A stretch of 64,000 bases of DNA from a virus (Duplodnaviria; Caudoviricetes), in IMG/VR virus record IMGVR_UViG_3300009161_000021; one strand, 5' to 3'. The notes under the pieces were generated by a model. The model was not told the origin of the DNA. It saw only the letters and a list, made by a program, of their open reading frames with translations, and made no database searches. Below, in pieces: positions 50,536-64,000 of the stretch. The translations under genes and the position numbers were made by a program. Position 1 is the first letter of the stretch. The number at the start of each line of letters is the position of its first letter.

Positions 50536-52164
50536 CTAAGTTTTGTGAATAGACTCGCGGAACGACTCAGGAAACATGTCCCGCTGCTGTCCGTAAAATC
50601 TATCCCAATCAGAGTCCAAGATATAGGAGATTGCATGATCATCTGCAGAGCGGATTGAACGACCGAGTGATTGGATGATGGTCTTTGCAGTCTGAAGAGG
50701 GTACCACCAGCTCCACTTTCGCATGCGCTTCTGGACCAGCTTGTCACCAAGGTAAGGATACGGCACCTTACAGATGATCTGGAATCGACTTAGGTCTCCC
50801 TTGAGGTCAACTCCTTCAGTCATCGATGGGGTTACGAGAACCGTCGGCTCCTTGCTGCTGATGTGCTGGTTGAGAACATCCTCACGATCCTCGGACTTGT
50901 GAGTCAAGAGACGCTTACTCCTGATGTTCTTCATGATGTAGCTGGACACCTTGTAAGAATGGCAGTGGATGATGCCCTTCTCGTTCGGGTGAGCGGCGAG
51001 GATCTGCCGGACCGCCTCGGCAAGCTTCGGAAGAGTGTTGTCAATCTCCGCAGCACTCATCTTACCGATCGAGCTCACGAGAACGGGTCGATTCTCAACC
51101 GGGAAGGGAGACGGAAGGCTGATGAAAGCCGTCTGCTCGAGTGGAATGCCGAGACTTTCACAGAATGCACGCTGATTGAGGATCGTGGCGGAGAGCATGA
51201 GAACCTTTCGACCGAACTTGAACAGCGACTGCTCCGAGTACGGAGAGATATCGATGGGCTTGAACTCGAGCCGACGGGTCTTTCGATCTTCAGTCTCGGT
51301 GATGTTAAAGACCCAGTTGTCCTCATCGAAAAGATCGATGAATCGATTCACCTTGCACATGTGCTTGTCAAGCATCTCAATCTGACGCGATAGAGCGTCG
51401 AACTCCTTCACCTTCTCACGAAGACCAGCATGCTGCTCGAACATCGCCTCGATATGCTTTAGATGAGAGGTGAGCTTCGTGATGTAGACGTTTTTGATCC
51501 AGTCGAATGCAGCTCGCTCGCTGTTGAGAGTCTTCGGCATCTGGAGGTTCAGAACAGTCTGGGCAAACTTCTCAGAAACTGAGACCTCGATAAACTTGCT
51601 GAGCTCGGAATCTGAGTTGTGAGCCTCATCGATAACAAGAACATCACGGGGAAGAAGCTTGCCCGCGTAGGTCGTTTCAGCCATGAAGTAGGAGAAGTTA
51701 GTGATGGACTCCGGAGATTCCATGAACTTTCCCTTTGCTTCCTTGTAATTGCAGCTGAACGAGCAGGTACGGAAAAACTTGGAGGTCTTGTCCTGCTCGA
51801 GCTTGAGAAGCCGCTGCGACTCACCACAAGACTGCTTCTTGTGGTACTTGCACTGGTAGTTCGAACTCGACTTAATCGAGGTCATCGGGCCCTTGCAACC
51901 GCCGAAGTCATCAAGGTACTGCTCCTGCAGGATCTTCTGGGTCGTGAGGAAGTAAGACCCTCGCTTGTAGTCCTCCTGATGGGGAAGCCAGTTCGAAAGA
52001 GCTCGAGAGATGCAGACACCGATGGCGGATTTGCCGACACCGGTCCCTGCCTCGACAATAACGAACCTCTTTCCGCTCTCAAACTCGCTGAGAGCGAACT
52101 CGATCGCCTCACGCTGCTGGTCACGGATTGCGCCAAACGGGAAGAAGCTCTCGTACGAAATCAT
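50536..52164 (-). CDS. DinG/XPD-family SF2 helicase with Fe-S cluster
   Basis: EAGTGVGKS, Cys cluster (C..C..C..C), DEAH, LSAT, SPFP, GVDL, QSLGRSIRSADD. Confidence 0.92.
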   Translation of the reverse strand: MISYESFFPFGAIRDQQREAIEFALSEFESGKRFVIVEAGTGVGKSAIGVCISRALSNWLPHQEDYKRGSYFLTTQKILQEQYLDDFGGCKGPMTSIKSSSNYQCKYHKKQSCGESQRLLKLEQDKTSKFFRTCSFSCNYKEAKGKFMESPESITNFSYFMAETTYAGKLLPRDVLVIDEAHNSDSELSKFIEVSVSEKFAQTVLNLQMPKTLNSERAAFDWIKNVYITKLTSHLKHIEAMFEQHAGLREKVKEFDALSRQIEMLDKHMCKVNRFIDLFDEDNWVFNITETEDRKTRRLEFKPIDISPYSEQSLFKFGRKVLMLSATILNQRAFCESLGIPLEQTAFISLPSPFPVENRPVLVSSIGKMSAAEIDNTLPKLAEAVRQILAAHPNEKGIIHCHSYKVSSYIMKNIRSKRLLTHKSEDREDVLNQHISSKEPTVLVTPSMTEGVDLKGDLSRFQIICKVPYPYLGDKLVQKRMRKWSWWYPLQTAKTIIQSLGRSIRSADDHAISYILDSDWDRFYGQQRDMFPESFRESIHKT

Positions 52165-52226
52165 TCTGATGTCCTCATGGGTGTGTAGTCAATTGTAAAC
52201 TGCACAGCAGGTATGAACAGAAAGAT

Positions 52227-52529
52227 TTACTTGAATTTTGGCTTGTTCGGATCGAAACCCGGAGAGTTTAGCAGACTCTTGTAGGCTCGATCAGCTTTGT
52301 CACGTGCCCAAAACATCGCATCATTCTCCGACTTGAAACGACGCGATGGTGTCGAGAGCGAATCATCATCATCAACTTTAACCTGGGCGATGTAGACCCC
52401 GCCGACCGGATCAGCAGTGATCATAACGTGGACACCAGGGTAATCTTTCCATGTGAGCGGGTCGGGTCGAGGAGACTTCAGGTCACGCCCAAGCTCCTCA
52501 CGTATCAATTTTCTGAGAAGCTCAATCAT
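52227..52529 (-). CDS. Hypothetical protein with N-terminal LRKLIREE motif
   Basis: 100 aa; starts MIELLRKLIREELG. Confidence 0.6.
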   Translation of the reverse strand: MIELLRKLIREELGRDLKSPRPDPLTWKDYPGVHVMITADPVGGVYIAQVKVDDDDSLSTPSRRFKSENDAMFWARDKADRAYKSLLNSPGFDPNKPKFK

Positions 52530-52690
52530 CGCAGCTGGGACTCCGCAATCTTAACCTCACGGGATGCACTCCGGAGCCTCTGGAGCACCGCGGCATCCTG
52601 TAGGTCCAGTAACCTGGCTGCCTGCTCCAGATCCTTTAGCGCCCTCCGGAGTAGCTGTTGCGCCCTTATTTTTTGGTCATCCGTTGCCAA
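52526..52690 (-). CDS. Small hypothetical protein
   Basis: Start refined to TTG 52690 after GGAG; preceded by an ATACTTAA motif. Confidence 0.45.
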   Translation of the reverse strand: MATDDQKIRAQQLLRRALKDLEQAARLLDLQDAAVLQRLRSASREVKIAESQLR

Positions 52691-52761
52691 GGTTTCGTCT
52701 CCATCCTTAAGTATGCCCCAGAAACAGTTTGGGCTCGCCGAAGCGAGCCCAAACACTATCA

Positions 52762-53280
52762 TCAATCGATCATAATTTTTTCCATGAGCTTGACACGCTC
52801 ACGTGCTTTTCGCTCCTTGTGTTTCGGGCGTTCGATCTCCTTGCAGAAAGCGAGAGCGTGCTGAGTAGCAGTTCCTTCACTTTCTTCGAGAGCCATCACA
52901 CGCTCGTTCTTTCGAACAGCTTTTGCGATACGATCTACCGATGTGACCACATCTCTCATCTCTTCCTTCGTCATGTTGTGGCCAAGACCTTTCGGGTTGA
53001 GCTGAAAGATGCCACGCTCACCAGCTTTGCCAACAACAGAAACATCAAGACCACTCTCGGCATAAGCGTTGACAAGTGCTCCGATAATGAGCTCATTTGA
53101 GAATCCATGCTCTCTCAAACGCTCCTCAACTTGATGAGCTACAGCTTCTTGATCTGAGTCAAGAATGAACAATGAAGTTACAGGGAATGGATTAGGAGCA
53201 GGCTGCGGTGGGACCGCAACCTTAGATGGCCAAAGAAAAACTCCTAAACAACAGGCCAGCAGAAGGGCCCTACTCATCAT
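52762..53280 (-). CDS. Lysozyme/lytic-transglycosylase-like muramidase with N-terminal hydrophobic anchor
   Basis: NAYAESGLD (catalytic Glu) and ERGIFQL (GxFQ) motifs; LLLACCLGVFLW N-terminus. Confidence 0.6.
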   Translation of the reverse strand: MMSRALLLACCLGVFLWPSKVAVPPQPAPNPFPVTSLFILDSDQEAVAHQVEERLREHGFSNELIIGALVNAYAESGLDVSVVGKAGERGIFQLNPKGLGHNMTKEEMRDVVTSVDRIAKAVRKNERVMALEESEGTATQHALAFCKEIERPKHKERKARERVKLMEKIMID

Positions 53281-53581
53281 TATCCGTGAGCTGATTCCCC
53301 GTGGCCTGAGCGATAGACCACGCGCGGGCTCGAATGTCGAGCATCACCTCGCTGCGACGCCGACGCGGATTCCACCGATTACGAAACTTGGGATTGCTGC
53401 GCTGACGAAGGAGCTTGCGAAACTTGCGCTTGCAGACGCGTGCTTCTCTCTCTGACATGGAGGCGAGTGCCTCGTCGATGCTCTTCGGACGATCGTCCTT
53501 CGATGCGCATGCGACTGTCGGGTGGACAATCCCAAGCTGCAGGGCGACCAGATCGCTGAAAATTTCGATTTGCCTGTACAT
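53270..53581 (-). CDS. Hypothetical basic protein
   Basis: Strong RBS AGGAGG; Arg/Lys-rich. Confidence 0.6.
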   Translation of the reverse strand: MYRQIEIFSDLVALQLGIVHPTVACASKDDRPKSIDEALASMSEREARVCKRKFRKLLRQRSNPKFRNRWNPRRRRSEVMLDIRARAWSIAQATGNQLTDNDE

Positions 53582-53594
53582 GTTTACCTCCTAG

Positions 53595-53636
53595 AAAAAA
53601 CCGCCGGGCCCCGATAAATATTCGGCGACCCGGCGG
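53595..53636 (-). terminator. Rho-independent terminator ending the tRNA-array transcript
   Basis: CCGCCGGG...CCCGGCGG stem followed by TTTTTT. Confidence 0.7.
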
Positions 53637-53851
53637 ATGTTTACTGACCCCCAGTACCGTGAGGACGTTCAACTGGTCAAACAACGGTCTGGTCACTGAA
53701 GCTGATCGGTACGACCTGCGTGTTATAAGACCGGAGAGACCTCGGTCCCAATCTCGAGCGCTCAGACCCGTGGATTGCAATAAGTTTGTGCCTCTCGAGC
53801 GCGCAACCCCATGATTTTGCACGCTACTGCAGTTGACGAATCAACAGCATC

Positions 53852-53926
53852 TGGTGATCCCACTGGGAGTTGAATCCAGCTTACGAGATTGAAAGTCTCG
53901 AGTCCTAACCGATAGACGATGGGATC
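53852..53926 (-). tRNA. tRNA-Glu(UUC)
   Basis: Cloverleaf GATCCCA...TGGGATC-ACCA; anticodon arm CGAGA-CTTTCAA-TCTCG. Confidence 0.9.
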
Positions 53927-53930
53927 GATG

Positions 53931-54004
53931 TGGTTGGGGCGCAAGGATTCGAACCTTAATTCGCGGGGTCAAAGCCCGCTGTCCTACCGTTGAACGACGC
54001 CCCA
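53931..54004 (-). tRNA. tRNA-Gln(UUG)
   Basis: TGGGGCG/CGCCCCA acceptor; GCGGG-CTTTGAC-CCCGC; GGTTCGAATCC; CCA encoded. Confidence 0.93.
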
Positions 54005-54046
54005 ACATGGTTCCGTTTTTTGGAAGGGTTTCCTGAAACCTTCAGA

Positions 54047-54325
54047 TGGTGGGCCCTGTGGGAATCGAACCCACAACCTTGGGATTACATACCACTTCGA
54101 CTTTCGTCGCCTTTGCAGTTCGTGGTCTGGACTATACCATCACCCTCGTCTTTCTCGTTAGGGTGCAGCCCCTCTAGTCTCTACACGTTCCCTTTCGGGC
54201 TTCGCTCGGGATTGTCATCAGCATTACCTGTTAAGAGTTCCCCGAATTTGGGCTGTGTTCGACAGAGATTTCTCCCTGAAGCTTCCATTGAAAGTCCCTT
54301 GCTCTGCCAGTTGAGCTAAAGGCCC
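54047..54325 (-). tRNA. tRNA-Lys(UUU) interrupted by a group I intron (exon 1 at 54291-54325, exon 2 at 54047-54087)
   Basis: Joined exons give a 76-nt cloverleaf with loop CTTT|TAA and encoded CCA. Confidence 0.9.
54088..54290 (-). ncRNA. Group I self-splicing intron (203 nt, no internal ORF)
   Basis: P1 CUUU|c-aau-g-GAAG with U.G at the splice site; P3 CAGCCC/GGGCTG; P4 TTCGGG/CCCGAG; P7 GACTA/TAGTC; P8 CACCCT/AGGGTG; P9 ACCAC/GTGGT; terminal G. Confidence 0.92.
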
Positions 54326-54996
54326 GTTAAATTTTCTTTTAACTTTTTCGCTCTGAAGTAGTTTGCACCTTTAGGAGCTAAACCAACTTTAATCAGCGCC
54401 TGACGAATTGACAAGCTGCTTTTTAGTGCTTCTGAAAGATCTTCATCACTCACTCTTTTTCTAGAGTTACTTTTGCTTTTATTTCTGCCTCTCCACGTGT
54501 GAGTTAGAGAATGGCAATTTGGGCAAAGAAGCTCTAGGTTCGATCTGTCATTATTATTTGTGTTTCCATCGCGATGTTCAAGCTCTAGAGTTATTTTTTG
54601 TCCGAGCCAGTTTTCTAATCCGCAATGGTTACATTTACCAGATTGTTCACGGAAAATTTTTTCTCTTTTCAAGATGATTGAAAGTTCTTCAAATGAAGCA
54701 TTTAGCTTGACTTCCAATCTGTTTTGATTATATCTTTCGCGTTCAAGCTTTGCATCATTTTTATCGCAATTTGACTTGTGCCCTATCAGAGCCATCTTCG
54801 AACCGAATTTTTTACCGCACCCATCACACTCAAAATCTTTGGGACATTCTCTACCAGACAAAGACTTTGAGACTTTTTCATTTATCTCTTTTCTCTTCGA
54901 TCTAGTCGAAAATGACCTCGAACATTTTGCGCTGCAGAATCTTCCGCTTCCATACGAGGCATCATGAGAGATTGAGCAATTTTCGCATTCGAACAT
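54316..54996 (-). mobile_element. Free-standing HNH homing endonuclease gene 1 (stop inside tRNA-Lys)
   Basis: CNHCG...ELEHRDGNTNNNDRSNLELLCPNCH; N-terminal YGSGRFCS..C zinc modules; visibly AT-rich. Confidence 0.85.
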
Positions 54997-55046
54997 AAGT
55001 TAATCCTCTTGTTTTAGATATTAACCTGAGTTCGAATTTGTGATCT

Positions 55047-55643
55047 TTATTTCGGCTTCACGCCACTTTTTAGCACAATCTCGCAGATGTGATCGAGACG
55101 CTCAACGTGCTCAAAAGCTGACCACGGATCACCAGCGACTGCGCAGACCCCGTGATTCGCTTGCCCTACGATATCATACTGGAGCGACCCGTCCGGTAGG
55201 CACCCCAGATGCACCCCAGTCATATCGCCCAGTTCACGTGATGTTGCCGGCAGGGCAGGTACGTTAGGCCCTACTCGGGTGTACCGGTTCACTTCTGGAA
55301 ACTGTCTGGCGAGCTCCTGAAGGTCCCAACCTGCAAACATTGCTGCAACCACATGGGTCGCGTGAACATGAACGACGGCGCGGGTTTTTGTGAAATCCTT
55401 CTGAATGAGCCAGTGCATATGAAGCTCACCGCTTGCGGTTTGTCCGGAAGGAGCGATTACGCCGTCATCGACAAGCTTGCACTTCACGATATGCTCTGGG
55501 TGGATGATAGTCTTCCTCCAGCCTGAAGGCGTGATGTACAGAGTCTTCGAGTTATTACGACACAGTGAGATATTTCCGTCACGATTTGTGATCCATCCAC
55601 GATCGTAGCACTTCCTCATCACGTCGCCAATTGCAGTTAGCAT
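55047..55643 (-). CDS. Class II aldolase/adducin family protein
   Basis: RDGNISL, YITPSG, SGELHMH, VVHVHATH, ANHG. Start refined to ATG 55643. Confidence 0.88.
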   Translation of the reverse strand: MLTAIGDVMRKCYDRGWITNRDGNISLCRNNSKTLYITPSGWRKTIIHPEHIVKCKLVDDGVIAPSGQTASGELHMHWLIQKDFTKTRAVVHVHATHVVAAMFAGWDLQELARQFPEVNRYTRVGPNVPALPATSRELGDMTGVHLGCLPDGSLQYDIVGQANHGVCAVAGDPWSAFEHVERLDHICEIVLKSGVKPK

Positions 55644-55719
55644 GCTAATTTTCTCCGCTCGTAAATATGAAAACGGCTGGCAACCAGTGCCAGCCGTCGC
55701 TCTATTTTGAGCTTTAGGA

Positions 55720-55827
55720 TCACTCGGCCGTAGTGGCAGAGCTCGTATCAGTGCCGGTATCGTCCTTACCACCGGTGCAACCACCGAGGAAGAGAGAACC
55801 GAGAACTGCAAGAATGACGAACTTCAT
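55720..55827 (-). CDS. 35-aa lipoprotein (not in ORF track)
   Basis: AAGGAG RBS; MKFVILAVLGSLFLGG-C-TGGKDDTGTDTSSATTAE with a lipobox. Confidence 0.7.
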   Translation of the reverse strand: MKFVILAVLGSLFLGGCTGGKDDTGTDTSSATTAE

Positions 55828-55883
55828 TGTGCTTCTCCTTTGAGACGTTAATTTTAACTCTTTTACTGAGACTATAAACAGAG

Positions 55884-55959
55884 TGGTGCCCCGGGCGGGA
55901 TTCGAACCCGCCCTACAGAGATTTTAAGTCTCCTGACTCTGCCGCTGGTCTACCGGGGC
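55884..55959 (-). tRNA. tRNA-Leu(UAA) with short variable loop
   Basis: 76 nt; GGAGA-CTTAAAA-TCTCT; discriminator A; CCA encoded. Confidence 0.85.
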
Positions 55960-56013
55960 CAACAGAAAGACTATACTGGTGACGAGTTCAATTTGCAACG
56001 AATATTTAACAAG

Positions 56014-57048
56014 ATGAACGGAAACCTAAGAAAGCTGATACGCTTGATGCTGGAATCGGACGCCACCGCGCCACTACCAGCCCACCATGTCCCAGCAGAT
56101 CCGTTTGTGCAGAGACGAGCGAAGATGGAAAGTGTGGCCAAAGATGTCGCAGAAGAGATGGGATTGGCCGACGTTCGATACCTGTCAAGATCCAAGAGGC
56201 TGTACGGAGCTTACACATTCTCAGCCGTCGACGAGAGAAATGAAAACGTAATTCTTAAGATTCAGCCCCTGAATGAGATCGAGAGCTACAAACGCGCCCA
56301 GCAAGCGATTGTCAGACTACCAGACCGGGTTGCTCGCCATATGCCAGTGATCTATAAGATCAGAACGCTAGAGGACCTGGGAGTTCCGCTTCCAACTGAT
56401 GACTTTGGAAGTCCAGAGAATCTGGGTGTCATTGTCATGGAGAGACTCGAGGAGCTACCGGGAAATATGTTCGATCTCATTACCCAGCCAGCGACTCGAT
56501 CCATCCACTCTTTAGGCTCTCTTGTTAGCGATCGTGAAGCTTTCTCAGCAGTCGTTGATGAGGCAATGAGCAGATCGAAGCGCGCGGTCGACGCAGCGAT
56601 TGCCGGTGCTCCAAGAAAATCAGACCCAGCCGAAGAATTCAGCAGACTTAAGAAAATGCTGGTCTCCGCATCTTATGACCCTGAGGTAACAGATCAAGGT
56701 AGTGGAATAATGCTCTCGGCCATTGACGGACTAAGATCGGCGATTGGAAAGAAAGTTGAGCTCTGGTGCCGCGCGCTTGGAATCACCAGACCTGGTTCAA
56801 TACAGTCGTTGAATCAGATGATAATGAGCTCAATAACGAGCTTGCTCGGACGTCGAGCGGTTCCGAAAGAGCCGACGAAAGAAGTCCCTGGACCGCTTGG
56901 AAGAATCAAGGGAGTCCGGGAACTCGTGAGCGCACTTGAGGATCTAAAGTCAATGAACATCAATCCGTCTGACGTTCACGGAAACAACATCATGCTAAGG
57001 CCGGAGACAGGTGAGCTTGTTCTGGCTGATCTAGGTCACTTCACCTAA
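56014..57048 (+). CDS. Protein kinase-like (APH/RIO-like) protein
   Basis: VILKI, VIYKI, IVMERLE, SDVHGNNIM (catalytic loop), LADLG. Start refined to ATG 56014. Confidence 0.7.
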   Translation: MNGNLRKLIRLMLESDATAPLPAHHVPADPFVQRRAKMESVAKDVAEEMGLADVRYLSRSKRLYGAYTFSAVDERNENVILKIQPLNEIESYKRAQQAIVRLPDRVARHMPVIYKIRTLEDLGVPLPTDDFGSPENLGVIVMERLEELPGNMFDLITQPATRSIHSLGSLVSDREAFSAVVDEAMSRSKRAVDAAIAGAPRKSDPAEEFSRLKKMLVSASYDPEVTDQGSGIMLSAIDGLRSAIGKKVELWCRALGITRPGSIQSLNQMIMSSITSLLGRRAVPKEPTKEVPGPLGRIKGVRELVSALEDLKSMNINPSDVHGNNIMLRPETGELVLADLGHFT

Positions 57049-57268
57049 TCATCTCATCGATAATTTCCTCTATCATCTCGCGAAGCCTCATCTGCTTGAA
57101 GTATTTTGCGATCTTACGACGAACGTCAGGTTCCACCATGAGACCCGGCGCGTCAAGCATGTCAGGCTCGTGACCATAAGTCGGGTCATGTGGTGCCTTT
57201 GTCTTCGCGCGCGGCTCCGAGAGTTTATGCCTCCCGGCTGGTGACTCACCTGACGTTCTCCATCTCAT
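57041..57268 (-). CDS. Hypothetical protein
   Basis: 75 aa, ATGA-coupled; ends LREMIEEIIDEMIR. Confidence 0.55.
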   Translation of the reverse strand: MRWRTSGESPAGRHKLSEPRAKTKAPHDPTYGHEPDMLDAPGLMVEPDVRRKIAKYFKQMRLREMIEEIIDEMIR

Positions 57269-57414
57269 TTCTTTTCATCCTTTGTGTACCACAGAAATGA
57301 TGCGCACGCAATTAGCAACGTGACATCTGAGATCCAGAAAAATGTTCGACCCATCGGATCAAGCAGCATCCACATGAAGAGCCTGAACCAGTAGTCGACA
57401 ATCTTAAAAATCAT
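57265..57414 (-). CDS. 49-aa membrane protein (not in ORF track)
   Basis: MIFKIVDYWFRLFMWMLLDPMGRTFFWISDVTLLIACASFLWYTKDEKK; ATGA overlaps at both ends. Confidence 0.55.
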   Translation of the reverse strand: MIFKIVDYWFRLFMWMLLDPMGRTFFWISDVTLLIACASFLWYTKDEKK

Positions 57415-58592
57415 CTACAGCTGCCGTAAAGATCGGTCGTAGCCCCTCCAGGAACGTTGACTTCAACAAACGGCTCATAGCAACCTTCCGAGTTGACGTT
57501 TCTAGTGTCAGTCCAGATGAGAGAGCCTCCAAGATACACACTCACCGTAACGTCGTTCTGACCCATGTAGACGGAACCTGGGTAGTCGTGCACGTAGACC
57601 GTGTAGGTCCCTCGTGCCGGTGAGTCGATGTTGATGTTCTCGGGACCAGTTCCCATGATGTCATCGAGATCGAGAACGGGGTTGTCAGCAGTGCCTGCGG
57701 CGCCCCAGTTAAGTCCGCCCCAGGTGCAGTTCGCGTAATAGCAGTCGGATGTTCCCGTCAGGACCCCACCGTCATCCAGGAGGTGAAGGTCCATGTCATC
57801 TCCCGAGTAGGTCCAGAACATCTCGATCCAGAGACCGCTACCAGCGGTGGCGTTCAAGGTCGCCTGACACGGCTCCGACTCTAGGCCATCGTTGTCGACC
57901 ACTACAAGCTCTCCGATGTATTCTCCAGCGACATCAGGAACAAAGTTACGACGATTCGCAGTTCCAGCTGGCGTTGTTGCTGTTGCACCCGCTGGTGACG
58001 AGATCAACGTCCAGCGATAATCAACGATTGAACCATCTGAATCGTATGAAGAATTTCCGACCCAATCGGCTGATCCGTGAATCGCCTCCACCTCAATCGG
58101 ATCAACGGAGCAGACTGCAACGGGTTGCGAAAGTGGCGGTGCAGTATCGCCTGTCTCTCCCGTATCGACATTGATCTCTGCGTGAGCTAGCAGAGGCACA
58201 CTAGTATTAGGATGGCTAGGATCGTTAGAAAGGATTTGAAGGACACCGCTTGTTTCACTCCCATCTGAATTGTAAGTGATCGTTAGCTCAACAGAATCAT
58301 CAGGCTCATATGTTCCCGTCAATGGCTCAAGGAGCGTGAACGTCTCTCGTCCCTCTCCTATCTGCATCGCTGTCACATTGAGAGCGACAGAACCCACCGA
58401 TGACATCGTTATGATGCTAGCTGAGCTCTCACCCGCTGGAACGATCCCAAAGTCAATTGACTCCGGGTCGACCTGGATCGCAGGCGTCCCATCCGGAGGC
58501 GGATCTTTAACCGGATGAAGCTCAGAATCCATGCAGCCGTTCTCGAGTGGCAGCAGAAGGGCGAAAAGTAGTAAACGTGGGATTCTGTTCAT
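57411..58592 (-). CDS. Exported probable lipoprotein with Ig-like (ASH/choice-of-anchor D), PKD-like and YfaP/DUF2135-like domains
   Basis: Signal peptide ending NGC; DPESIDFG..., YRWTLISSP, FVPDVAGEYIGELVV, DMDLHL...DCYYANC...LDLDD...GPENINI. Confidence 0.65.
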   Translation of the reverse strand: MNRIPRLLLFALLLPLENGCMDSELHPVKDPPPDGTPAIQVDPESIDFGIVPAGESSASIITMSSVGSVALNVTAMQIGEGRETFTLLEPLTGTYEPDDSVELTITYNSDGSETSGVLQILSNDPSHPNTSVPLLAHAEINVDTGETGDTAPPLSQPVAVCSVDPIEVEAIHGSADWVGNSSYDSDGSIVDYRWTLISSPAGATATTPAGTANRRNFVPDVAGEYIGELVVVDNDGLESEPCQATLNATAGSGLWIEMFWTYSGDDMDLHLLDDGGVLTGTSDCYYANCTWGGLNWGAAGTADNPVLDLDDIMGTGPENINIDSPARGTYTVYVHDYPGSVYMGQNDVTVSVYLGGSLIWTDTRNVNSEGCYEPFVEVNVPGGATTDLYGSCR

Positions 58593-58621
58593 TGTCGCTC
58601 CTCTTCTAACTATAGGAGGAG

Positions 58622-59194
58622 CTAGGGACGATTTAATGTCTCTGACGGGTCAACGACAATAATATCATCGAAACCCTCTTCTCGTGTCGGTAGTTCCAGA
58701 CGATTAAACATGCTTTGCATGATTGCAGGGCTCAAGTTTTTGTCCTGGAGCTCTGCAGCACGGAGATCGACCGATCGTTGCACTTTGCTCTCCATCCCGC
58801 GATAGTCAAAGAAGACAGCAATCTTCTCATATTCTCTCTCACGTCCCGCGATGGCTTTCAGAGCGCTCTTTCTGGAACCGACCCCCATATTTGTCATGTC
58901 AACGACTATATCCTGACCCGACTGGGCTGCTCCCGCGACACGATTACGAAATTCTCTATCAACTTCCTTTGAGATGTGACGACCCGCTGGGCCAAACGTG
59001 TCATTGTATTTGATTCCGTGAGGAGCTCGAACTGCATCAACAATGTCATCCCTGCTGATGATATAAGCGTCACGCACGTTCTGTCGAACCCAGTGCGACT
59101 TTCCGACTCCGGGAGGTCCGACAAGAACGTAAATTTTGGGTCGAGAGATGCTCTCACGAATAAGCTGGCGAAGGAGAGTCGGTGTAGAGCTCAT
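58622..59194 (-). CDS. P-loop kinase (AAA_33 / polynucleotide kinase-like)
   Basis: VLVGPPGVGKS, ISRDDIV, IVVDMTN, R motif, EEGFD. Confidence 0.8.
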   Translation of the reverse strand: MSSTPTLLRQLIRESISRPKIYVLVGPPGVGKSHWVRQNVRDAYIISRDDIVDAVRAPHGIKYNDTFGPAGRHISKEVDREFRNRVAGAAQSGQDIVVDMTNMGVGSRKSALKAIAGREREYEKIAVFFDYRGMESKVQRSVDLRAAELQDKNLSPAIMQSMFNRLELPTREEGFDDIIVVDPSETLNRP

Positions 59195-59206
59195 AATTTT
59201 CTCCTG

Positions 59207-59506
59207 CTACCTCTTGATATGGGACAAGTAGACCTTGTATCGAATTTTTCCGCCCTTTGTCTTCCCAAGTTTCTTATATCCATCACCGTGATCATCGCTT
59301 ATATCATATCTCGCGCTGTGATCGTCGATAGCTTTCGTCTGAGCTTTCTGGATAGCATCAGCGATCTCCTCATCATGATCATGCGGCCGGTGCGGGACCT
59401 CAACTTCGTAAGAAATTTCAGCCGGAGGGTCGTTATCCTTCGACTCACGAAACAATTCTTCTTTGATGATCTGGCGGAGCTTGATTTCTGATATGTGAAT
59501 TGCCAT
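59207..59506 (-). CDS. Hypothetical protein with N-terminal LRQIIKEE motif
   Basis: 99 aa; MAIHISEIKLRQIIKEEL. Confidence 0.6.
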   Translation of the reverse strand: MAIHISEIKLRQIIKEELFRESKDNDPPAEISYEVEVPHRPHDHDEEIADAIQKAQTKAIDDHSARYDISDDHGDGYKKLGKTKGGKIRYKVYLSHIKR

Positions 59507-59666
59507 TTGTTCTTGTCCTGATGCCGTTAAGTATGTATCAGATAAAAGAAAAGCGGCTTTTGGAATACCTCCAGAGCCGCGAACTGTGCCAACCTACGAT
59601 TTGGACGGGATTTCGCCATGCGAGCATGGTCCCGTGTATACGATCTCTGATCAGGAGCCGTTAGTA

Positions 59667-59753
59667 CGGAGACGGCAGGATTCGAACCTGCGACCAACTT
59701 TCGCCGGTGGTCCCTTAGCAAGGGACTGGTTTGAGCCACTCACCCACGTCTCC
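59667..59753 (-). tRNA. tRNA-Ser(GCU), CCA not encoded
   Basis: GGAGACG/CGTCTCC-G; GTCCC-TTGCTAA-GGGAC; long variable arm. Confidence 0.92.
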
Positions 59754-59758
59754 AAAGT

Positions 59759-60748
59759 TCAGAAGGAAGCTGGATTTCCCTTTGTGGACCCGAGAAAGCT
59801 CACAATATCAGTCACCTGCTCAGGGGTGAGAGACTTACCAAGCTGGTGCTTTCCCATCATGTAGACGGCTGCGCCCAGGCTCTCGGAAGATGCATCGTGG
59901 AAGTAGGGTGCCGTCTCAGTGGAATTGCGAAGGGAAGACACCTTGAAGACCATCCGATCGGTTTCCTGTCCCGTCACTCCGAATCGCCCCTGGTCTGCCT
60001 GGTTGGGCCAAGGCTCCACAGCACCGAGCTTCATGAAAGACGCACCACCGAGAAGAGTGCCGTTATGACATGCCGTGCAACCGACCTCCATGAAGGTATT
60101 GAGGCCCCGCTTCTCGTCGTTGGTGAGAGCGGCATCGTCACCCTGGAGGAAAGCGTCCCACCTGGAGGGTGTGACCAGCGTTCGCTCGTAGGCACCGATG
60201 GCGACACCGACGTTCTCAAAAGTGAGGGGATCCTTCTCACCCGGGAATGCCTTCGCGAACTCAACAACGTAGGTGGGATCCTCCTTGAGGACGCGGGCAA
60301 CGGTCTCGGCATCCGGCATCGCCATCTCACCCGCAGCGAGGATAGGACCGAGTGCCTGCTCCTCGACCGTCTTTGCTCGACCGTCCCAAAACTGGGAAGC
60401 CTGTCCTGCTGCGTTGAAGACCGTCGGAGAGTTACGACCTGCCGGCGTCATCTTGTGACCCGGGGAGAGCTTATGCTCATCAGCGCCGTCCTTCGCAACA
60501 TTATGACAGGTGGAGCATGACATGTTGGCGTCGGCCGAGAGCTGGGTCTCAAAGAAGAGACGGCGACCGAGAAAGATCAGATCAGGAGAAGGCTCCGCTC
60601 CCGCAATGAAGAAGTTTTCCGGGAGCGGCTGGAACGCTCCAAGCTTAGTACGATCAACCGTGACAGCATCCGTGATCTGCGGATTTACGGGCTCCGCAAC
60701 GTTGCTGGCATCGGAGCATGCGATGAGCAGGGAAAGAATCGCGATCAT
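59759..60748 (-). CDS. Di-heme cytochrome c peroxidase (CcpA/MauG family), lipoprotein
   Basis: Two CxxCH motifs (CSTCH, CTACH); LGRRLFFE, RNSPTVFNA, QFWDGRA, FKVSSLRN, APYFHD; signal MIAILSLLIA-C. Start refined to 60748. Confidence 0.92.
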   Translation of the reverse strand: MIAILSLLIACSDASNVAEPVNPQITDAVTVDRTKLGAFQPLPENFFIAGAEPSPDLIFLGRRLFFETQLSADANMSCSTCHNVAKDGADEHKLSPGHKMTPAGRNSPTVFNAAGQASQFWDGRAKTVEEQALGPILAAGEMAMPDAETVARVLKEDPTYVVEFAKAFPGEKDPLTFENVGVAIGAYERTLVTPSRWDAFLQGDDAALTNDEKRGLNTFMEVGCTACHNGTLLGGASFMKLGAVEPWPNQADQGRFGVTGQETDRMVFKVSSLRNSTETAPYFHDASSESLGAAVYMMGKHQLGKSLTPEQVTDIVSFLGSTKGNPASF

Positions 60749-60752
60749 TTTA

Positions 60753-61100
60753 TCAACCCTCGGTGGAGGTGTCGGTAGAGGAACCCGTATCAGAGGAGCC
60801 AGTGTCAGGGGGAACCTCACCGCCCGTGTCACCGGTATCAGGGCACGCCATCTCGGTCTGAGCGACCGTTCCATCCTCCTGGCAAGAGCAGGAGTTGCAG
60901 CCATCCTCGCAGGTCCACGTGGCGCCGACGTCGTAGGTGCCCGTGGCGTCGGTGCAGGTGACAGTCACAGCAGTATCGACCGAGCTGGTATCACCCTCAC
61001 CGCAAGCTGCGGTATCAACGGTGCTGGTCTTGTCATCATCTCCGCCGCATGCTGCAAGGGTGAGGAGAGGAAGAAGAAGTAGGACATTAGCGAGCTTCAT
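60753..61100 (-). CDS. Lipoprotein with pacifastin-like Cys-rich domain and DT-rich tail
   Basis: MKLANVLLLLPLLTLAA-C; C...YDVGATWTCEDGCNSCSCQEDG...TEMAC. Start refined to 61100. Confidence 0.7.
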   Translation of the reverse strand: MKLANVLLLLPLLTLAACGGDDDKTSTVDTAACGEGDTSSVDTAVTVTCTDATGTYDVGATWTCEDGCNSCSCQEDGTVAQTEMACPDTGDTGGEVPPDTGSSDTGSSTDTSTEG

Positions 61101-61134
61101 GTTGATTGTTCCTTTGTTGTTGATTGCTATCATC

Positions 61135-61166
61135 AAAAAAGCCGGCATCTATTATTAGATGCCGGC
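61135..61166 (-). terminator. Rho-independent terminator
   Basis: Perfect 10-bp stem GCCGGCATCT/AGATGCCGGC plus TTTTTT, downstream of tRNA-Thr. Confidence 0.85.
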
Positions 61167-61170
61167 CGTG

Positions 61171-61244
61171 TGGTGCCCCCTGTCGGAATCGAACCAACAA
61201 AGCCTGATTACAAAACAGGTATTTTACCATTAAATTAAGGGGGC
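61171..61244 (-). tRNA. tRNA-Thr(UGU)
   Basis: GCCCCCT/AGGGGGC-ACCA; CCTGT-TTTGTAA-TCAGG. Confidence 0.88.
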
Positions 61245-61248
61245 AAGA

Positions 61249-61337
61249 TGGCGGAGAGCGTGGGACTCGCACCCACAACGGGCTCTTAACCCGCGACAGT
61301 TTTCAAGGCTGTTTCCTCATCTGGCCGGATGCTCTCC
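61249..61337 (-). tRNA. tRNA-Ser(UGA)
   Basis: GGAGAGC/GCTCTCC-GCCA; loop CTTGAAA; long variable arm; atypical T-loop TGCGAGT. Confidence 0.85.
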
Positions 61338-62068
61338 ATATTCTTGATGTAATGATTATATCTTCTGCTGAAGCAATGTTCAAGATAAAAATCAGGCATT
61401 AGTGAGCGAACTCTACGACCGACGACTTGTGGATGTTCATTACAACGTTCAGCTAATAACTGAACCCATCCATACTTTGAAAAGTCAATCTCTTTAGATT
61501 GATGAAGCTCATTCACTTTTTGAATAAACCTTTCCTGAAAGTTAATCTTAGTTTTTTCAAACTCTCGAAAAACTTTCTTCTTATCACGTTTTATCTCAGT
61601 CGTCTGAGCTTTCTTCGTTTCAATTTTGAGTTGTCGTTCAAATCTCTTCGCTTCTTGGGTCTTGTGCCTTTCATTATAACCAGCATTACCCGGTCTTAGT
61701 GATGAAGCATGCTTTTCGTTTCCTTTGTTCGACCAATTTCGATATTTTGGAGTTAGAGCGTGACAGTTTGGGCAAAGAATGCGAAGGTTACTTAAAGAGT
61801 TATTATCATGATTTCCATCGATGTGATCAACTTCAAGTATCGAAGCACCGCACTCTCGTGTTTTTTCGTATCCACATGACGTGCATTTGTAATTTGACTT
61901 CCAAAGTAAGAACGAGCGAATCGCTCTTTGTGGGAAATCTTCCCAATTGGAAGTGATTACGTCATCGAACTTTTCAAAGAAAGAGATTCCGCTGCCGTGA
62001 TTTGCTGCGTAATGACTCCTTAAAGTTCTAAGAGAATCTGTCAAAAACTCACAGTCGCATGAAAACAT
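61286..62068 (-). mobile_element. Free-standing HNH homing endonuclease gene 2 (stop inside tRNA-Ser)
   Basis: CTSCG...LEVDHIDGNHDNNSLSNLRILCPNCH; AT-rich. Confidence 0.85.
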
Positions 62069-62135
62069 TCGAACTCTCGGTTCTAAATATACTCATACGA
62101 TTGATTCAGGTTAATCAACTTTCTAATTTTATAGG

Positions 62136-62219
62136 TGGTGCGCGAAGAGGGACTTGAACCCTCAAGCCGTCAGGCACAGGCTTCTAAGACCTGCGTGTAT
62201 ACCATTCCACCATCCGCGC
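62136..62219 (-). tRNA. tRNA-Leu(UAG)
   Basis: CAGGT-CTTAGAA-GCCTG; long variable arm; CCA encoded. Confidence 0.92.
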
Positions 62220-62225
62220 GTCATG

Positions 62226-62302
<77 letters not shown>

Positions 62303-62306
62303 AATG

Positions 62307-62381
<75 letters not shown>

Positions 62382-62382
62382 A

Positions 62383-62458
62383 TGGTGGCACTAACTTGAT
62401 TCGAACAAGTGACCGAGTGTGTATGAAACGCTAGCTCTACCGACTGAGCTATAGTCCT
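62383..62458 (-). tRNA. tRNA with CAU anticodon (Met or Ile2), degenerate acceptor stem
   Basis: Good D and T arms; loop TTCATAC; acceptor GG-ACTA vs TAGTGCC (1-nt deficit) and a C.A mismatch in the anticodon stem. Confidence 0.6.
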
Positions 62459-62462
62459 TCGA

Positions 62463-62554
62463 TGGTGGGAGAGGTCAGATTCGAACTGACAGTGTTTGCC
62501 CTGAGGGAACGGGTTTACAGCTCGTCGCTAGACCACCGCCCTAGCAGCTCTCCC
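62463..62554 (-). tRNA. tRNA-Tyr(GUA)
   Basis: GGGAGAG/CTCTCCC-ACCA; loop CTGTAAA; long variable arm. Confidence 0.88.
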
Positions 62555-62562
62555 AAAATCTG

Positions 62563-62871
62563 TTAGGGAGCCGAGGTGTCGGTGCCGCCGGAACCAGTGT
62601 CGCTGGAAGCGCCAGTATCAGTTGCGCCGGTGTCGCTACCAGCACCAGTGTCAGCCCCGGTATCCTGGGACGCCGTATCCTGCGGAGTCGAAGTATCGGC
62701 AGTATCGCCACCGCTGGTGTCCGCGGTGTCAACCGGATCGGTCACGGCAGTGTCCTGACCAGCAGTATCCTGAGGGCAGGTAACAGTGTCGTCGTCCTTG
62801 TCATCGTCATGATGGCAGCCAGCAAGGGCCAGAGCTGCGACTGCAAAAGCAGAGATCGTGAAGTTACGCAT
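62563..62871 (-). CDS. Lipoprotein composed of acidic DT(A/S/G) low-complexity repeats
   Basis: MRNFTISAFAVAALALAG-C lipobox; about a dozen DT dipeptides in the 84-residue mature part. Confidence 0.8.
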   Translation of the reverse strand: MRNFTISAFAVAALALAGCHHDDDKDDDTVTCPQDTAGQDTAVTDPVDTADTSGGDTADTSTPQDTASQDTGADTGAGSDTGATDTGASSDTGSGGTDTSAP

Positions 62872-62909
62872 TTTTCTCCTTGATTGTGCACTCTCGTGCG
62901 ATTGTTGAA

Positions 62910-62984
62910 TGGTGGACCGTACCGGAATCGAACCGGTCCTTCAGGCTTGCAAAGCCCGTGTGCCCCCGACAACACTTACAGCCC
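62910..62984 (-). tRNA. tRNA-Ala(UGC) with non-canonical D arm
   Basis: GGGCTGT/ACGGTCC with the G3.U70 identity pair; CGGGC-TTTGCAA-GCCTG; CCA encoded. Confidence 0.85.
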
Positions 62985-63516
62985 ATTTATCATTGATGTA
63001 TTTCTGAACTTTATCTTGTATTTCGATTTTGTATCTGCTATGCATGTACTGATGATGAGTTGGACAAAGAGGAACTAGATTTTTTGGATCATTATTGTCG
63101 TGATTCTCATCACAATGATGAACAGCTACAATCTTATTTTCGTCGCAAACGCAGCAAACTTTATCATGGTATTTCCACGCAATAGCTACGTAATGCTTCG
63201 GTTCATTGATCCTGTATTTTTCTGATTTTGCTTTTCCGCCTAAAGAATTTGCGCAGCTTCTTGAGCAAAAGTATTTTTCTTTAGACGGAAATTTCTTTGC
63301 TCTCTCTTTAATCATAAAGAGTTTGGAGCAAGTCTCGCAAAAGACTTCAAATTCTTGAATCGGCCCAAGTCTTTTTTCTACTGAAAGTGACTGCGCGAGT
63401 TTTAAGCTCTCAGTGTTTTCTTTTTTTGGATTTTTTTCGCACCATCTAGAGTGATTAGCTTTATCAGACAAAGAATCAAACTCAAAATTATTCTTGCAAT
63501 GTTTGCATGTCCACAT
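62941..63516 (-). mobile_element. Free-standing HNH homing endonuclease gene 3 (stop inside tRNA-Ala)
   Basis: CCVC...VAVHHCDENHDNNDPKNLVPLCPTHH; N-terminal CKHC and KYFCSRSC modules. Start refined to ATG 63516. Confidence 0.8.
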
Positions 63517-63567
63517 AAACCTAATTATTCTGGGAGAGCAAATAAATTGCAATCAAATTTGAAGTTT

Positions 63568-63588
63568 TCCCAGCTGAGCTACGCCCCC
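63568..63588 (-). pseudogene. Orphan 5-prime fragment of a canonical tRNA (Ala-like)
   Basis: GGGGGCGTAGCTCAGCTGGGA, followed by an abrupt switch to AT-rich HNH leader sequence. Confidence 0.6.
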
Positions 63589-63685
63589 TCTACTTTGACT
63601 TTCCGAAGCACCTCAGAGCGCGGTGAATCGCTCTCACAAGCTGGTAAATTACTGATAGAAGTTTCATCGTAAACCTTCAACGAAA

Positions 63686-63762
63686 TGGCCTCACCAATTG
63701 GATTCGAACCAATGACCCGCAGCTTAGAAGGCTGCTGCTCTATCCAGCTGAGCTATGGTGAG
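63686..63762 (-). tRNA. tRNA-Arg(UCU)
   Basis: CTCACCA/TGGTGAG-GCCA; GCAGC-CTTCTAA-GCTGC. Confidence 0.95.
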
Positions 63763-63879
63763 ATGAAGTTCCCTGTCTTTCCAGAGTGTCAGATCGGATT
63801 CCATTAGCTGGATCATAGTATTGCCCTGTTAATTCAGGAGAACCCATCTAATGGAATCAGGCCTTACGATCATTGGCAT

Positions 63880-63955
63880 TGGTAGGCGGGGTGGGGATTG
63901 AACCCACGACCGGGTGGATATAAGCCACCTGCTCTGACCGCTGAGCTACCCGCCT
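63880..63955 (-). tRNA. tRNA-Ile(UAU)
   Basis: AGGCGGG/CCCGCCT-ACCA; GGTGG-CTTATAT-CCACC; canonical D and T arms. Confidence 0.88.
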
Positions 63956-64000
63956 ATAATGGTAGTGGTCATCTAATGAGCAGATTCTTAGTGGCGTCCG

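Follow-up and report, generated by a model that had tools for sequence, protein, structure and literature searches.

The 64,000-nucleotide (nt) stretch of viral DNA analysed here (IMG/VR record IMGVR_UViG_3300009161_000021; hereafter the window) comes from a freshwater giant phage and contains a compact locus in which a predicted HNH endonuclease gene, HNH3, lies between a fragment of one alanine transfer RNA (tRNA-Ala) gene and a complete copy of another. On the minus strand, the locus begins with the stump GGGGGCGTAGCTCAGCTGGGA (63568..63588), which corresponds to positions 1-21 of a tRNA-Ala gene and is broken in the D loop. This is followed by an AT-rich leader of 51 nt (63517..63567), the HNH3 gene itself (62941..63516; 191 amino acids) and a complete tRNA-Ala(UGC) gene (62910..62984) recognised by both ARAGORN and Rfam. 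The end of the stump, at tRNA position 21, is 52 nt before the A of the HNH3 start codon (ATG at 63516), leaving 51 nt between them. An original prediction, made from the sequence of the window alone, had described an orphan canonical 5' piece of tRNA-Ala, HNH3 and a divergent complete tRNA-Ala(UGC), and every detail of that description is correct on the minus strand.

The leader, the nuclease gene and the complete tRNA-Ala form a fused unit, referred to here as the cassette, in which a leader with promoter-like signals precedes HNH3 and the first bases of the tRNA double as the last codons of HNH3. The gene starts at an ATG (MWTCKHC...) that is conserved in homologues, not at the upstream TTG of a mechanical list of open reading frames (ORFs). 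At its other end, the gene shares 44 nt with the tRNA: the two Gs of a tryptophan codon, TGG, are at the same time G1 and G2 of the tRNA, the last 14 codons consist of tRNA sequence, and the stop codon TGA falls at 62943..62941. With a GC content of 35-41%, compared with 50-60% in the surroundings, the cassette is AT-rich and foreign to its context by composition.

The match between the stump and a tRNA-Ala gene is far beyond chance, because a 21-nt match of this kind has a chance expectation of about 3e-8 and the 14-nt core TAGCTCAGCTGGGA matches only real tRNA genes. This core has one exact copy in the window, and its matches with up to two mismatches are otherwise just real tRNA genes (0.38 expected). 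The stump agrees with the intact tRNA-Ala genes of two related loci at 20/21 (L023) and 19/21 (L015) positions. Its acceptor strand, GGGGGCG, pairs with the 3' strand of the downstream tRNA, ACGGTCC, at only 3/7 positions, whereas the 5' strand of that tRNA, GGGCTGT, pairs at 7/7, G3:U70 included. This bears out the claim that the orphan acceptor cannot pair with the downstream tRNA. A split or intron-containing tRNA, assembled from the stump and the downstream 3' half, was also considered and is ruled out by the poor acceptor pairing and by the lack of an Rfam intron there: in a scan of 52000-64000 at an E-value of 1 or better, Intron_gpI was found solely at 54106..54302, and no ribozyme was found around HNH3.

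The complete tRNA-Ala of the cassette has a full cloverleaf and the anticodon UGC, but an Rfam score of 46.9 bits, compared with 64-70 bits for most canonical neighbours. Its D arm is unusual, with A8 instead of U8, a 3-base-pair (bp) stem GUG/CAC and the loop UUGUCGGGGG, where canonical genes have U8, A14 and a 4-bp stem GCUC/GAGC. An exact 25-mer of this odd 5' half is found in other viral contigs, and the same or nearly the same tRNA is present in L038, L003, L004, L125 and L025. The T and anticodon stems co-vary, with compensatory changes, among the window, L003, L004, L125 and L025. Because it is conserved across contexts with such compensatory changes, the cassette tRNA looks like a maintained, functional gene.

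The clearest view of what such a cassette does to its target comes from related phages. Using the 3' half of tRNA-Arg(UCU) as an anchor, 27 metagenome loci with related tRNA arrays were fetched. The original prediction had proposed a search for an HNH3-less relative with an intact GGGGGCATAGCTCAGTTGGGAGAGC... tRNA-Ala, and L015 is such a relative: it lacks HNH3 and carries the canonical gene GGGGGCATAGCTCAGTTGGGAGAGCGCC...CCTCCACCA. Exactly there, its sister L025 carries a 24-nt stump and a cassette. Identity between the flanks of the two contigs is 99.05% across 948 nt to the left and 100% across 101 nt to the right, while the 50 nt of L015 that make up tRNA-Ala past its first 24 nt are replaced by 658 nt in L025. 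This insert comprises a homologous leader, an HNH3 homologue (79% amino acid identity), an odd tRNA-Ala and five extra bases, AATCA. The canonical allele is the older state, because a truncated gene can be derived only from a full one. Presence and absence at one site between near-identical genomes are thus seen in the related pair L015/L025, not in the window's own block.

In further relatives, both ends of the displaced gene survive. The cassette is flanked by 5' and 3' stumps in L062, L067 and L038; in L067, the 5' stump GGGGATA pairs at 7/7 positions with the TATCTCC of the 3' stump ...TATCTCCACCA, and in L062 6/7 stump acceptor positions pair. In L038, where HNH is 69% identical to HNH3 and the cassette tRNA is identical to that of the window, a chimeric tRNA-Ser(GCU) comes after the cassette; except that one G is absent, its final 28 nt correspond to the 3' end of the canonical tRNA-Ala gene in L015, which places a crossover in the conserved T arm. 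Remnants of 7-10 nt from the 3' end, TCCACCA or TCCTCCACCA, follow the cassette tRNA in L125, L058 and L066. Together with L015/L025, the paired stumps uphold in substance the claim that the cassette replaced an ancestral tRNA-Ala, although this may not have happened at the exact position that it has in the window.

The L038 chimera (L038:3113-3203, also in L039) is of interest in its own right. Its body is that of a tRNA-Ser(GCU), and its T arm and the 3' strand of its acceptor stem come from the displaced canonical tRNA-Ala; A5 is mismatched with C68, and the discriminator base is A. It probably arose as a side effect of repair at the conserved GGTTCGAA. A parallel involving tRNA-Asn occurs in L003 (2340-1640, minus strand), where the 5' stump TCCCCGATAGCTCAGCGGTAA is followed in turn by another HNH ORF, by a complete tRNA-Asn(GUU) and by a 3' stump that ends in TTGGGGAGCCA and pairs with the 5' stump. 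At L002:5848-5983, a complete tRNA-Arg(UCU) whose D arm is odd is preceded, at a distance of 35 nt and without an intervening nuclease gene, by the canonical tRNA-Arg 5' stump GGCCCCGTAGCTCAACTGGATAGAG; the gene that follows resembles HNH3 in its N-terminal zinc-finger part alone and has another C-terminal domain. In L004 (12080-11520, minus strand), an unrelated nuclease-like ORF (...RDHAVSVRYGF...HPANCVLMRHGDN...) has a TAA stop codon that coincides with positions 7-9 of the odd tRNA-Ala also found in the cassette, so different endonuclease families dock on the 5' end of this tRNA gene.

The association with tRNA-Ala extends across the HNH3 family. Among IMG/VR loci with an HNH3 homologue of at least 47% identity, a same-strand tRNA-Ala(UGC) abuts or overlaps the end of the ORF in 16/18. 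Four of these 16 genes were missed by ARAGORN because of their aberrant D arms, and tRNA counts of phages with such cassettes will consequently be too low. Two examples are L053:2017-2093 and L049:2040-2115, both cassette tRNA-Ala(UGC) genes with G3:U70 and D arms too aberrant for ARAGORN. More than 500 HNH3 homologues of 105-335 amino acids are present in metagenomes. BLAST of the region against GenBank phages returned only HNH-core matches of 74-76% in Serratia and Erwinia jumbo phages, without synteny. A more distant clade, related to HNH3 in the HNH domain alone, is tied equally tightly to tRNA-Pro(UGG) (L044-L123). Upstream tRNA-Pro 5' stumps were seen in L098, broken in the anticodon loop, and in L114.

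On this evidence, the stretch is best read, with a probability of roughly 0.78, as the cassette of a free-standing homing endonuclease lying within what is left of a canonical tRNA-Ala(UGC) gene. In annotation, the 21-nt stump and the ORF/tRNA overlap should be given a common label as one mobile element. The least credible of the alternatives considered is that HNH3 is a nuclease serving the phage, such as a cutter of host tRNA-Ala genes or ribosomal RNA (rRNA) operons, or a packaging-associated HNH protein, that happens to sit in a tRNA array tolerant of insertions. In bacteria, the spacers of rRNA operons are a common place for tRNA-Ala(UGC) genes, which have a canonical D arm, and an enzyme aimed at this arm would hit the host too. 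However, presence and absence fall exactly inside the tRNA-Ala gene of near-identical contigs, paired stumps exist, the composition is AT-rich and foreign, and hundreds of unrelated contigs show the link to a single tRNA isotype; these are the hallmarks of a selfish element.

HNH3 itself is predicted to be a free-standing endonuclease of the HNH (His-Me finger) type, with zinc-finger modules of Cys and His residues in its N-terminal part. Residues 129-165 match the 'HNH endonuclease' family PHROG 7545 (E 1.2e-7), and an alignment of 28 homologues shows that H133/H134, N142, N146, H154/H155 and H159 are invariant, as are the putative zinc-site residues C121, C124 and C151 with H154/H155. Two more invariant Cys/His clusters lie in the N-terminal half (C4, C7, H22, C26 and C60, C63, C84, C88). 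The C-terminal K-W that overlaps G1 and G2 of the tRNA is widely conserved in the same alignment, and the tails beyond it are translated tRNA. An AlphaFold2 model has a mean predicted local distance difference test (pLDDT) value of 86.8, with values below 50 in the tail (181-191), and folds residues 131-158 into two strands followed by a helix. Foldseek matches of this model in PDB are weak (best E 4.5e-3) and at the top mostly HNH nucleases (IscB, McrA, Cap5, Gme HNH, PacI and Cas9 HNH). Neither Pfam nor PHROGs returned a GIY-YIG family for HNH3; the nuclease-domain matches are to HNH.

Several observations nevertheless weigh against the homing-cassette reading. Concerning the enzyme, the Pfam HNH_2 match reaches 18.9 bits, under the 21-bit cut-off, and a family-profile search found no PDB relative by sequence at E 0.01 or better. 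The pairing of HNH3 with the odd tRNA-Ala is not obligatory, because this tRNA stands without an adjacent HNH3 in L003 and behind an unrelated nuclease ORF in L004. The D-arm comparison favours the reading, but with limits: a canonical D arm (score at least 15/16) is found in 0/19 distinct HNH-adjacent tRNA-Ala genes and in 6/22 non-adjacent ones (Fisher p = 0.023), but the sample is biased, as the loci were obtained via HNH, and 14/22 phage tRNA-Ala genes without an HNH beside them score below 13. As regards the window's own copy, an extra T-arm motif that would mark a 3' stump was sought in 62860-63700 and none was found. Around ten cassette-free relatives (L005, L021, L027, L029-L031, L034-L036 and L008, in which the lipoprotein gene is missing as well) carry no tRNA at the array position of the locus, which in the window is flanked by tRNA-Arg(UCU) and the lipoprotein gene. 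No cassette-free allele of the window's block, meaning the small ORF in front of the stump followed by an intact GGGGGCGTAGCTCAGCTGGGAGAGC... tRNA-Ala, was found in relatives. In L033 (JACCDO011393763.1), the small ORF begins directly after tRNA-Arg(UCU), on a contig that stops 62 nt after this tRNA.

The original prediction had named tRNA-free, HNH-less relatives as the outcome that would speak against a replacement. Taken literally, the ten or so relatives above are of this kind. However, they also lack the 25-codon small ORF, and because the whole block is absent from them, they are uninformative about what the cassette displaced.

If HNH3 is a homing enzyme, its likely target would be the D-arm DNA, given the break points of the stumps at positions 21-25 and the consistent recoding of the D arm in cassette tRNAs. 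In the mechanism envisaged, HNH3 would recognise and break the D-arm region of ordinary tRNA-Ala genes, and the break would be repaired from a co-infecting, cassette-bearing genome. Crossing over on the left would take place within the initial 21-25 nt of the tRNA gene or in its upstream flank, and on the right within its T arm, its 3' end or its downstream flank. The leader, the HNH gene and the new tRNA would thereby take over from the central part of the old gene, which would be lost, and the new tRNA would keep alanine decoding. A carrier of the cassette may lack an intact target site, as the stumps stop at the break point and none of the 19 cassette tRNAs has a canonical D arm; both features may protect it from cutting. 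Cut site, immunity and homing through double-strand-break repair are proposed here from sequence comparison.

A bolder version of this scheme is that the cassette homes to a gene and not to a locus. The stumps would then serve as homology arms that allow entry into any canonical tRNA-Ala(UGC), whatever its flanks, the nuclease-proof recoded tRNA would be the payment for this entry, and HNH clades would be specialised by isotype (Ala here, Pro in the sister clade). This is a tentative proposal, with the odds somewhat against it. If true, it would represent an intron-free route into essential RNA genes, and host tRNA-Ala genes in rRNA operons would be among the targets of the enzyme.

The history of the window's own copy has to be read from its surroundings. 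The window is a phage-like contig whose long ORFs all run in one direction; it also encodes a baseplate wedge protein, a helicase and PhoH, and ARAGORN finds 13 tRNA genes. On the minus strand, the cassette is preceded by tRNA-Arg(UCU) (63762..63686) and by the 25-codon ORF MKLLSVIYQLVRAIHRALRCFGKSK (63590..63667), which was read from the sequence and belongs to the resident context outside the cassette. The stump starts one base past the stop codon of this ORF. At the right edge, the insert is flush with a resident spacer of 38 nt (62872..62909), which is followed by the lipoprotein gene on the same strand.

Diverged relatives share the order of 25-codon ORF, stump, leader, HNH3 and odd tRNA-Ala. 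Homologous stumps are found in the equivalent place in L025, L038, L124 and L012, and homologues of the 25-codon ORF lie immediately before the tRNA-Ala stump in L038/L039 and L012; in L012, the small ORF, a shorter stump and the leader are followed by the end of the contig. A longer ORF before the tRNA-Ala of L015 and L023 bears a weak N-terminal resemblance, by eye, to the 25-codon ORF, a likeness that falls short of established homology. Because relatives as diverged as L012 and L038 share the block, the scar in the window is old and inherited rather than fresh. The 5' stump is eroding: its length is 24 nt in L025, 21 nt in the window and about 9 nt in L012, and (T)GGGAGAG alone is left in L050, L051, L125 and L040. 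The 'snapshot' of spread that had been proposed for the window is thus not what this shared and decaying block looks like. The window's copy instead probably goes back to an invasion that predated the split from L012- and L038-type relatives, with the 3' stump lost later.

A fresh invasion in place, in which the immediate ancestor had a canonical tRNA-Ala at exactly this array position and was hit recently, is improbable. The tight junctions on both sides of the insert would suit such an event, and L015/L025 provide a documented case of a recent one. However, the same block lies elsewhere in the arrays of diverged relatives (after a 752-amino-acid ORF in L038 and after tRNA-Leu(UAA) in L012), with identity down to 69% for the HNH protein and 40% for the small ORF (both in L038). 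The stump is 3 nt shorter than that of L025, and its 3' counterpart is gone. In addition, every contig of the window's population (L124 and L130-L132) carries the cassette, and the structure of L124 is the same as that of the window. An exact look-up of the lipoprotein recovered only this cassette-bearing population, with L130-L132 at 98.6-99.9%.

Searches for an uninvaded allele in public data gave little. A 17-mer of the small ORF returned just four chance hits in IMG/VR. Parts of the stretch are contained in 24 freshwater or other metagenome runs, and no HNH-less join was found in the Logan contigs of four partial-match runs, which are fragmentary. Several Logan contigs stop at the first or last base of the stump, and these ends could be branch points of the assembly graph.

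Alternatively, the scar may have been imported. Here the block, stump included, would have moved into the spacer between tRNA-Arg and the lipoprotein gene by recombination between tRNA arrays, and no canonical tRNA-Ala would ever have stood there. This differs from the homing-cassette reading with an old, inherited scar only in the place of the invasion, and it is a serious possibility, if a little short of an even chance. About ten relatives have an unbroken spacer of 25-50 nt whose homologue in the window is the 38-nt sequence behind the cassette tRNA, and in the cassette-free L034, L027 and L005 the homologue of 62872..62909, over its full length, lies right after tRNA-Arg(UCU). A similar short trailer, (C)TTCA..., follows the CCA of both tRNA-Arg and the cassette tRNA, and the order of the array is different in nearly every relative. 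On the other hand, the small ORF of L033 also lies directly after tRNA-Arg(UCU), so that this position is common to at least one other lineage; differences between this ORF and that of the window are mostly synonymous. Loss of the block in the other relatives fits the data equally well.

The leader raises the question of whether the stump has been kept for a purpose. It contains the promoter-like TTGCAA-17 nt-AATAAT at 63552..63524 and has homologues in L025, L038, L012 and L124. Between the two hexamers, 29 nt downstream of the stump, lies GCTCTCCCAG (63539..63530), an exact 10-nt reverse complement of the canonical D arm CTGGGAGAGC, which could act as a hairpin partner or as an operator. It is kept in L025 (CTCTCCCA), L038 (GCTCTCC) and L012 (ATCTCCCA). 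The stump might accordingly be useful, either by acting as a homology arm during homing or by contributing one strand to a hairpin or operator that it would form with GCTCTCCCAG for regulation. The retention and placement of the inverted copy, and the persistence of the (T)GGGAGAG remnant before the leader in many diverged cassettes, would fit such a role. However, the stump shrinks from its 5' side in L012, L125 and L040, GAG has been lost in the window, leaving a 6-bp stem, and many cassettes have no recognisable stump, which makes retention for use unlikely. In other cassette leaders (L040, L046, L048, L050-L052 and L056), a sequence resembling T4-type late promoters, TATAAATA(CTCC), is frequent and is followed by a palindrome (e.g. 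ACTCCTATAGGAGT) that would sequester the GGAG ribosome-binding site. This combination suggests tight, timed expression of the nuclease.

The window holds two further nuclease genes that occupy tRNA genes. HNH2 (62068..61286) repeats the fusion design of HNH3: its last 52 nt, coding sequence and stop codon, are overlapped by a type-II tRNA-Ser(UGA)-like gene (61338..61252, minus strand) with the acceptor GGAGAGC/GCUCUCC, a long variable arm and an odd D loop. This gene was missed by ARAGORN, and its Rfam match is only a 35-bit 'tRNA-Sec'. In the region 54996..54047 (minus strand), the TAG stop codon of HNH1 lies ten bases into a tRNA that is split in the anticodon loop by a group I intron. The intron, at 54302..54106, scores 56.6 bits in Rfam and interrupts the tRNA-Lys next to HNH1. 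The intron case and the ORF/tRNA fusion represent two non-destructive ways of occupying a tRNA gene within 10 kilobases.

The cassette would show how a homing endonuclease can occupy an essential RNA gene without an intron or intein. Neither is needed because the cassette brings a spare gene that is presumably uncuttable by its own enzyme. Such elements could help explain several features of phage tRNA arrays, including their mosaicism, tRNA fragments, chimeric tRNAs and tRNAs with aberrant D arms that are overlooked by gene finders. If isotype-specific targeting is real, enzymes of about 190 amino acids that recognise 15-25 bp of conserved tRNA-gene sequence could be mined as natural rare cutters.

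In the literature searched, no description of a stump, nuclease, replacement tRNA and stump layout was found, nor any paper combining 'homing endonuclease', 'truncated tRNA' and 'phage'; HNH genes in phage tRNA clusters are mentioned in general terms only (PMC6409571). Several known systems nevertheless share parts of this biology. Group I introns, such as that in the tRNA-Lys of the window, likewise allow a selfish nuclease to occupy a tRNA gene while tRNA function is kept, but function is restored by RNA splicing and not, as in the HNH3 cassette, by a second complete gene. Other free-standing enzymes include SegF and SegG of phage T4, examples of intron-less homing, and the HNH genes F-TflI/II/IV in the tRNA region of phage T5, all as cited in PMC2330249. 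According to these citations, they spread by double-strand-break repair with co-conversion of flanks, and the T5 ORFs lie in a tRNA cluster as HNH3 does, whereas SegF and SegG target protein-gene regions. Within the same limits, no replacement tRNA or stump architecture was found for the T5 enzymes in the literature searched.

A closer likeness is offered by T4 SegB, whose free-standing gene belongs to the tRNA cluster of that phage; this endonuclease recognises the T-psi-C motif conserved in tRNA genes and brings about replacement of the tRNA region of its neighbour (PMC2330249). As with HNH3, a free-standing nuclease gene lies among phage tRNA genes and is missing in close relatives. As proposed for HNH3, a conserved motif of tRNA genes is part of the recognition site, and homing carries neighbouring tRNA genes along and erases recipient markers. 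The ORF also abuts a tRNA, so that tRNA processing touches its messenger RNA. However, SegB is a GIY-YIG enzyme whose T-psi-C motif is common to all tRNAs, without isotype preference (PMC13096335), whereas HNH3 is a predicted His-Me/HNH enzyme and its clade is tied to tRNA-Ala, with a sister clade tied to tRNA-Pro. HNH3 would thus be SegB-like in action but is not a family member, and a stump-flanked replacement tRNA inside the target gene is not described for SegB.

The other close parallel is found in fungal mitochondria, where mobile endonuclease ORFs (mORFs) make gene hybrids in atp6 of Allomyces macrogynus and in atp6, atp9, cox2 and nad3 of Glomus (PMC3630166). In these cases too, an endonuclease ORF lies inside an essential gene without an intron and brings a foreign copy of the displaced part, and the native end persists downstream as a defunct duplicate in which the match to close relatives is still visible. 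The mORFs differ in that they encode LAGLIDADG or GIY-YIG enzymes, target protein genes and supply only the C-terminal part, in frame, whereas the HNH3 cassette supplies a whole RNA gene and the dead pieces are both ends of the tRNA gene. The HNH3 cassette is best seen as a variant of free-standing homing endonuclease biology, with T4 SegB and the fungal mORFs as its closest analogues.

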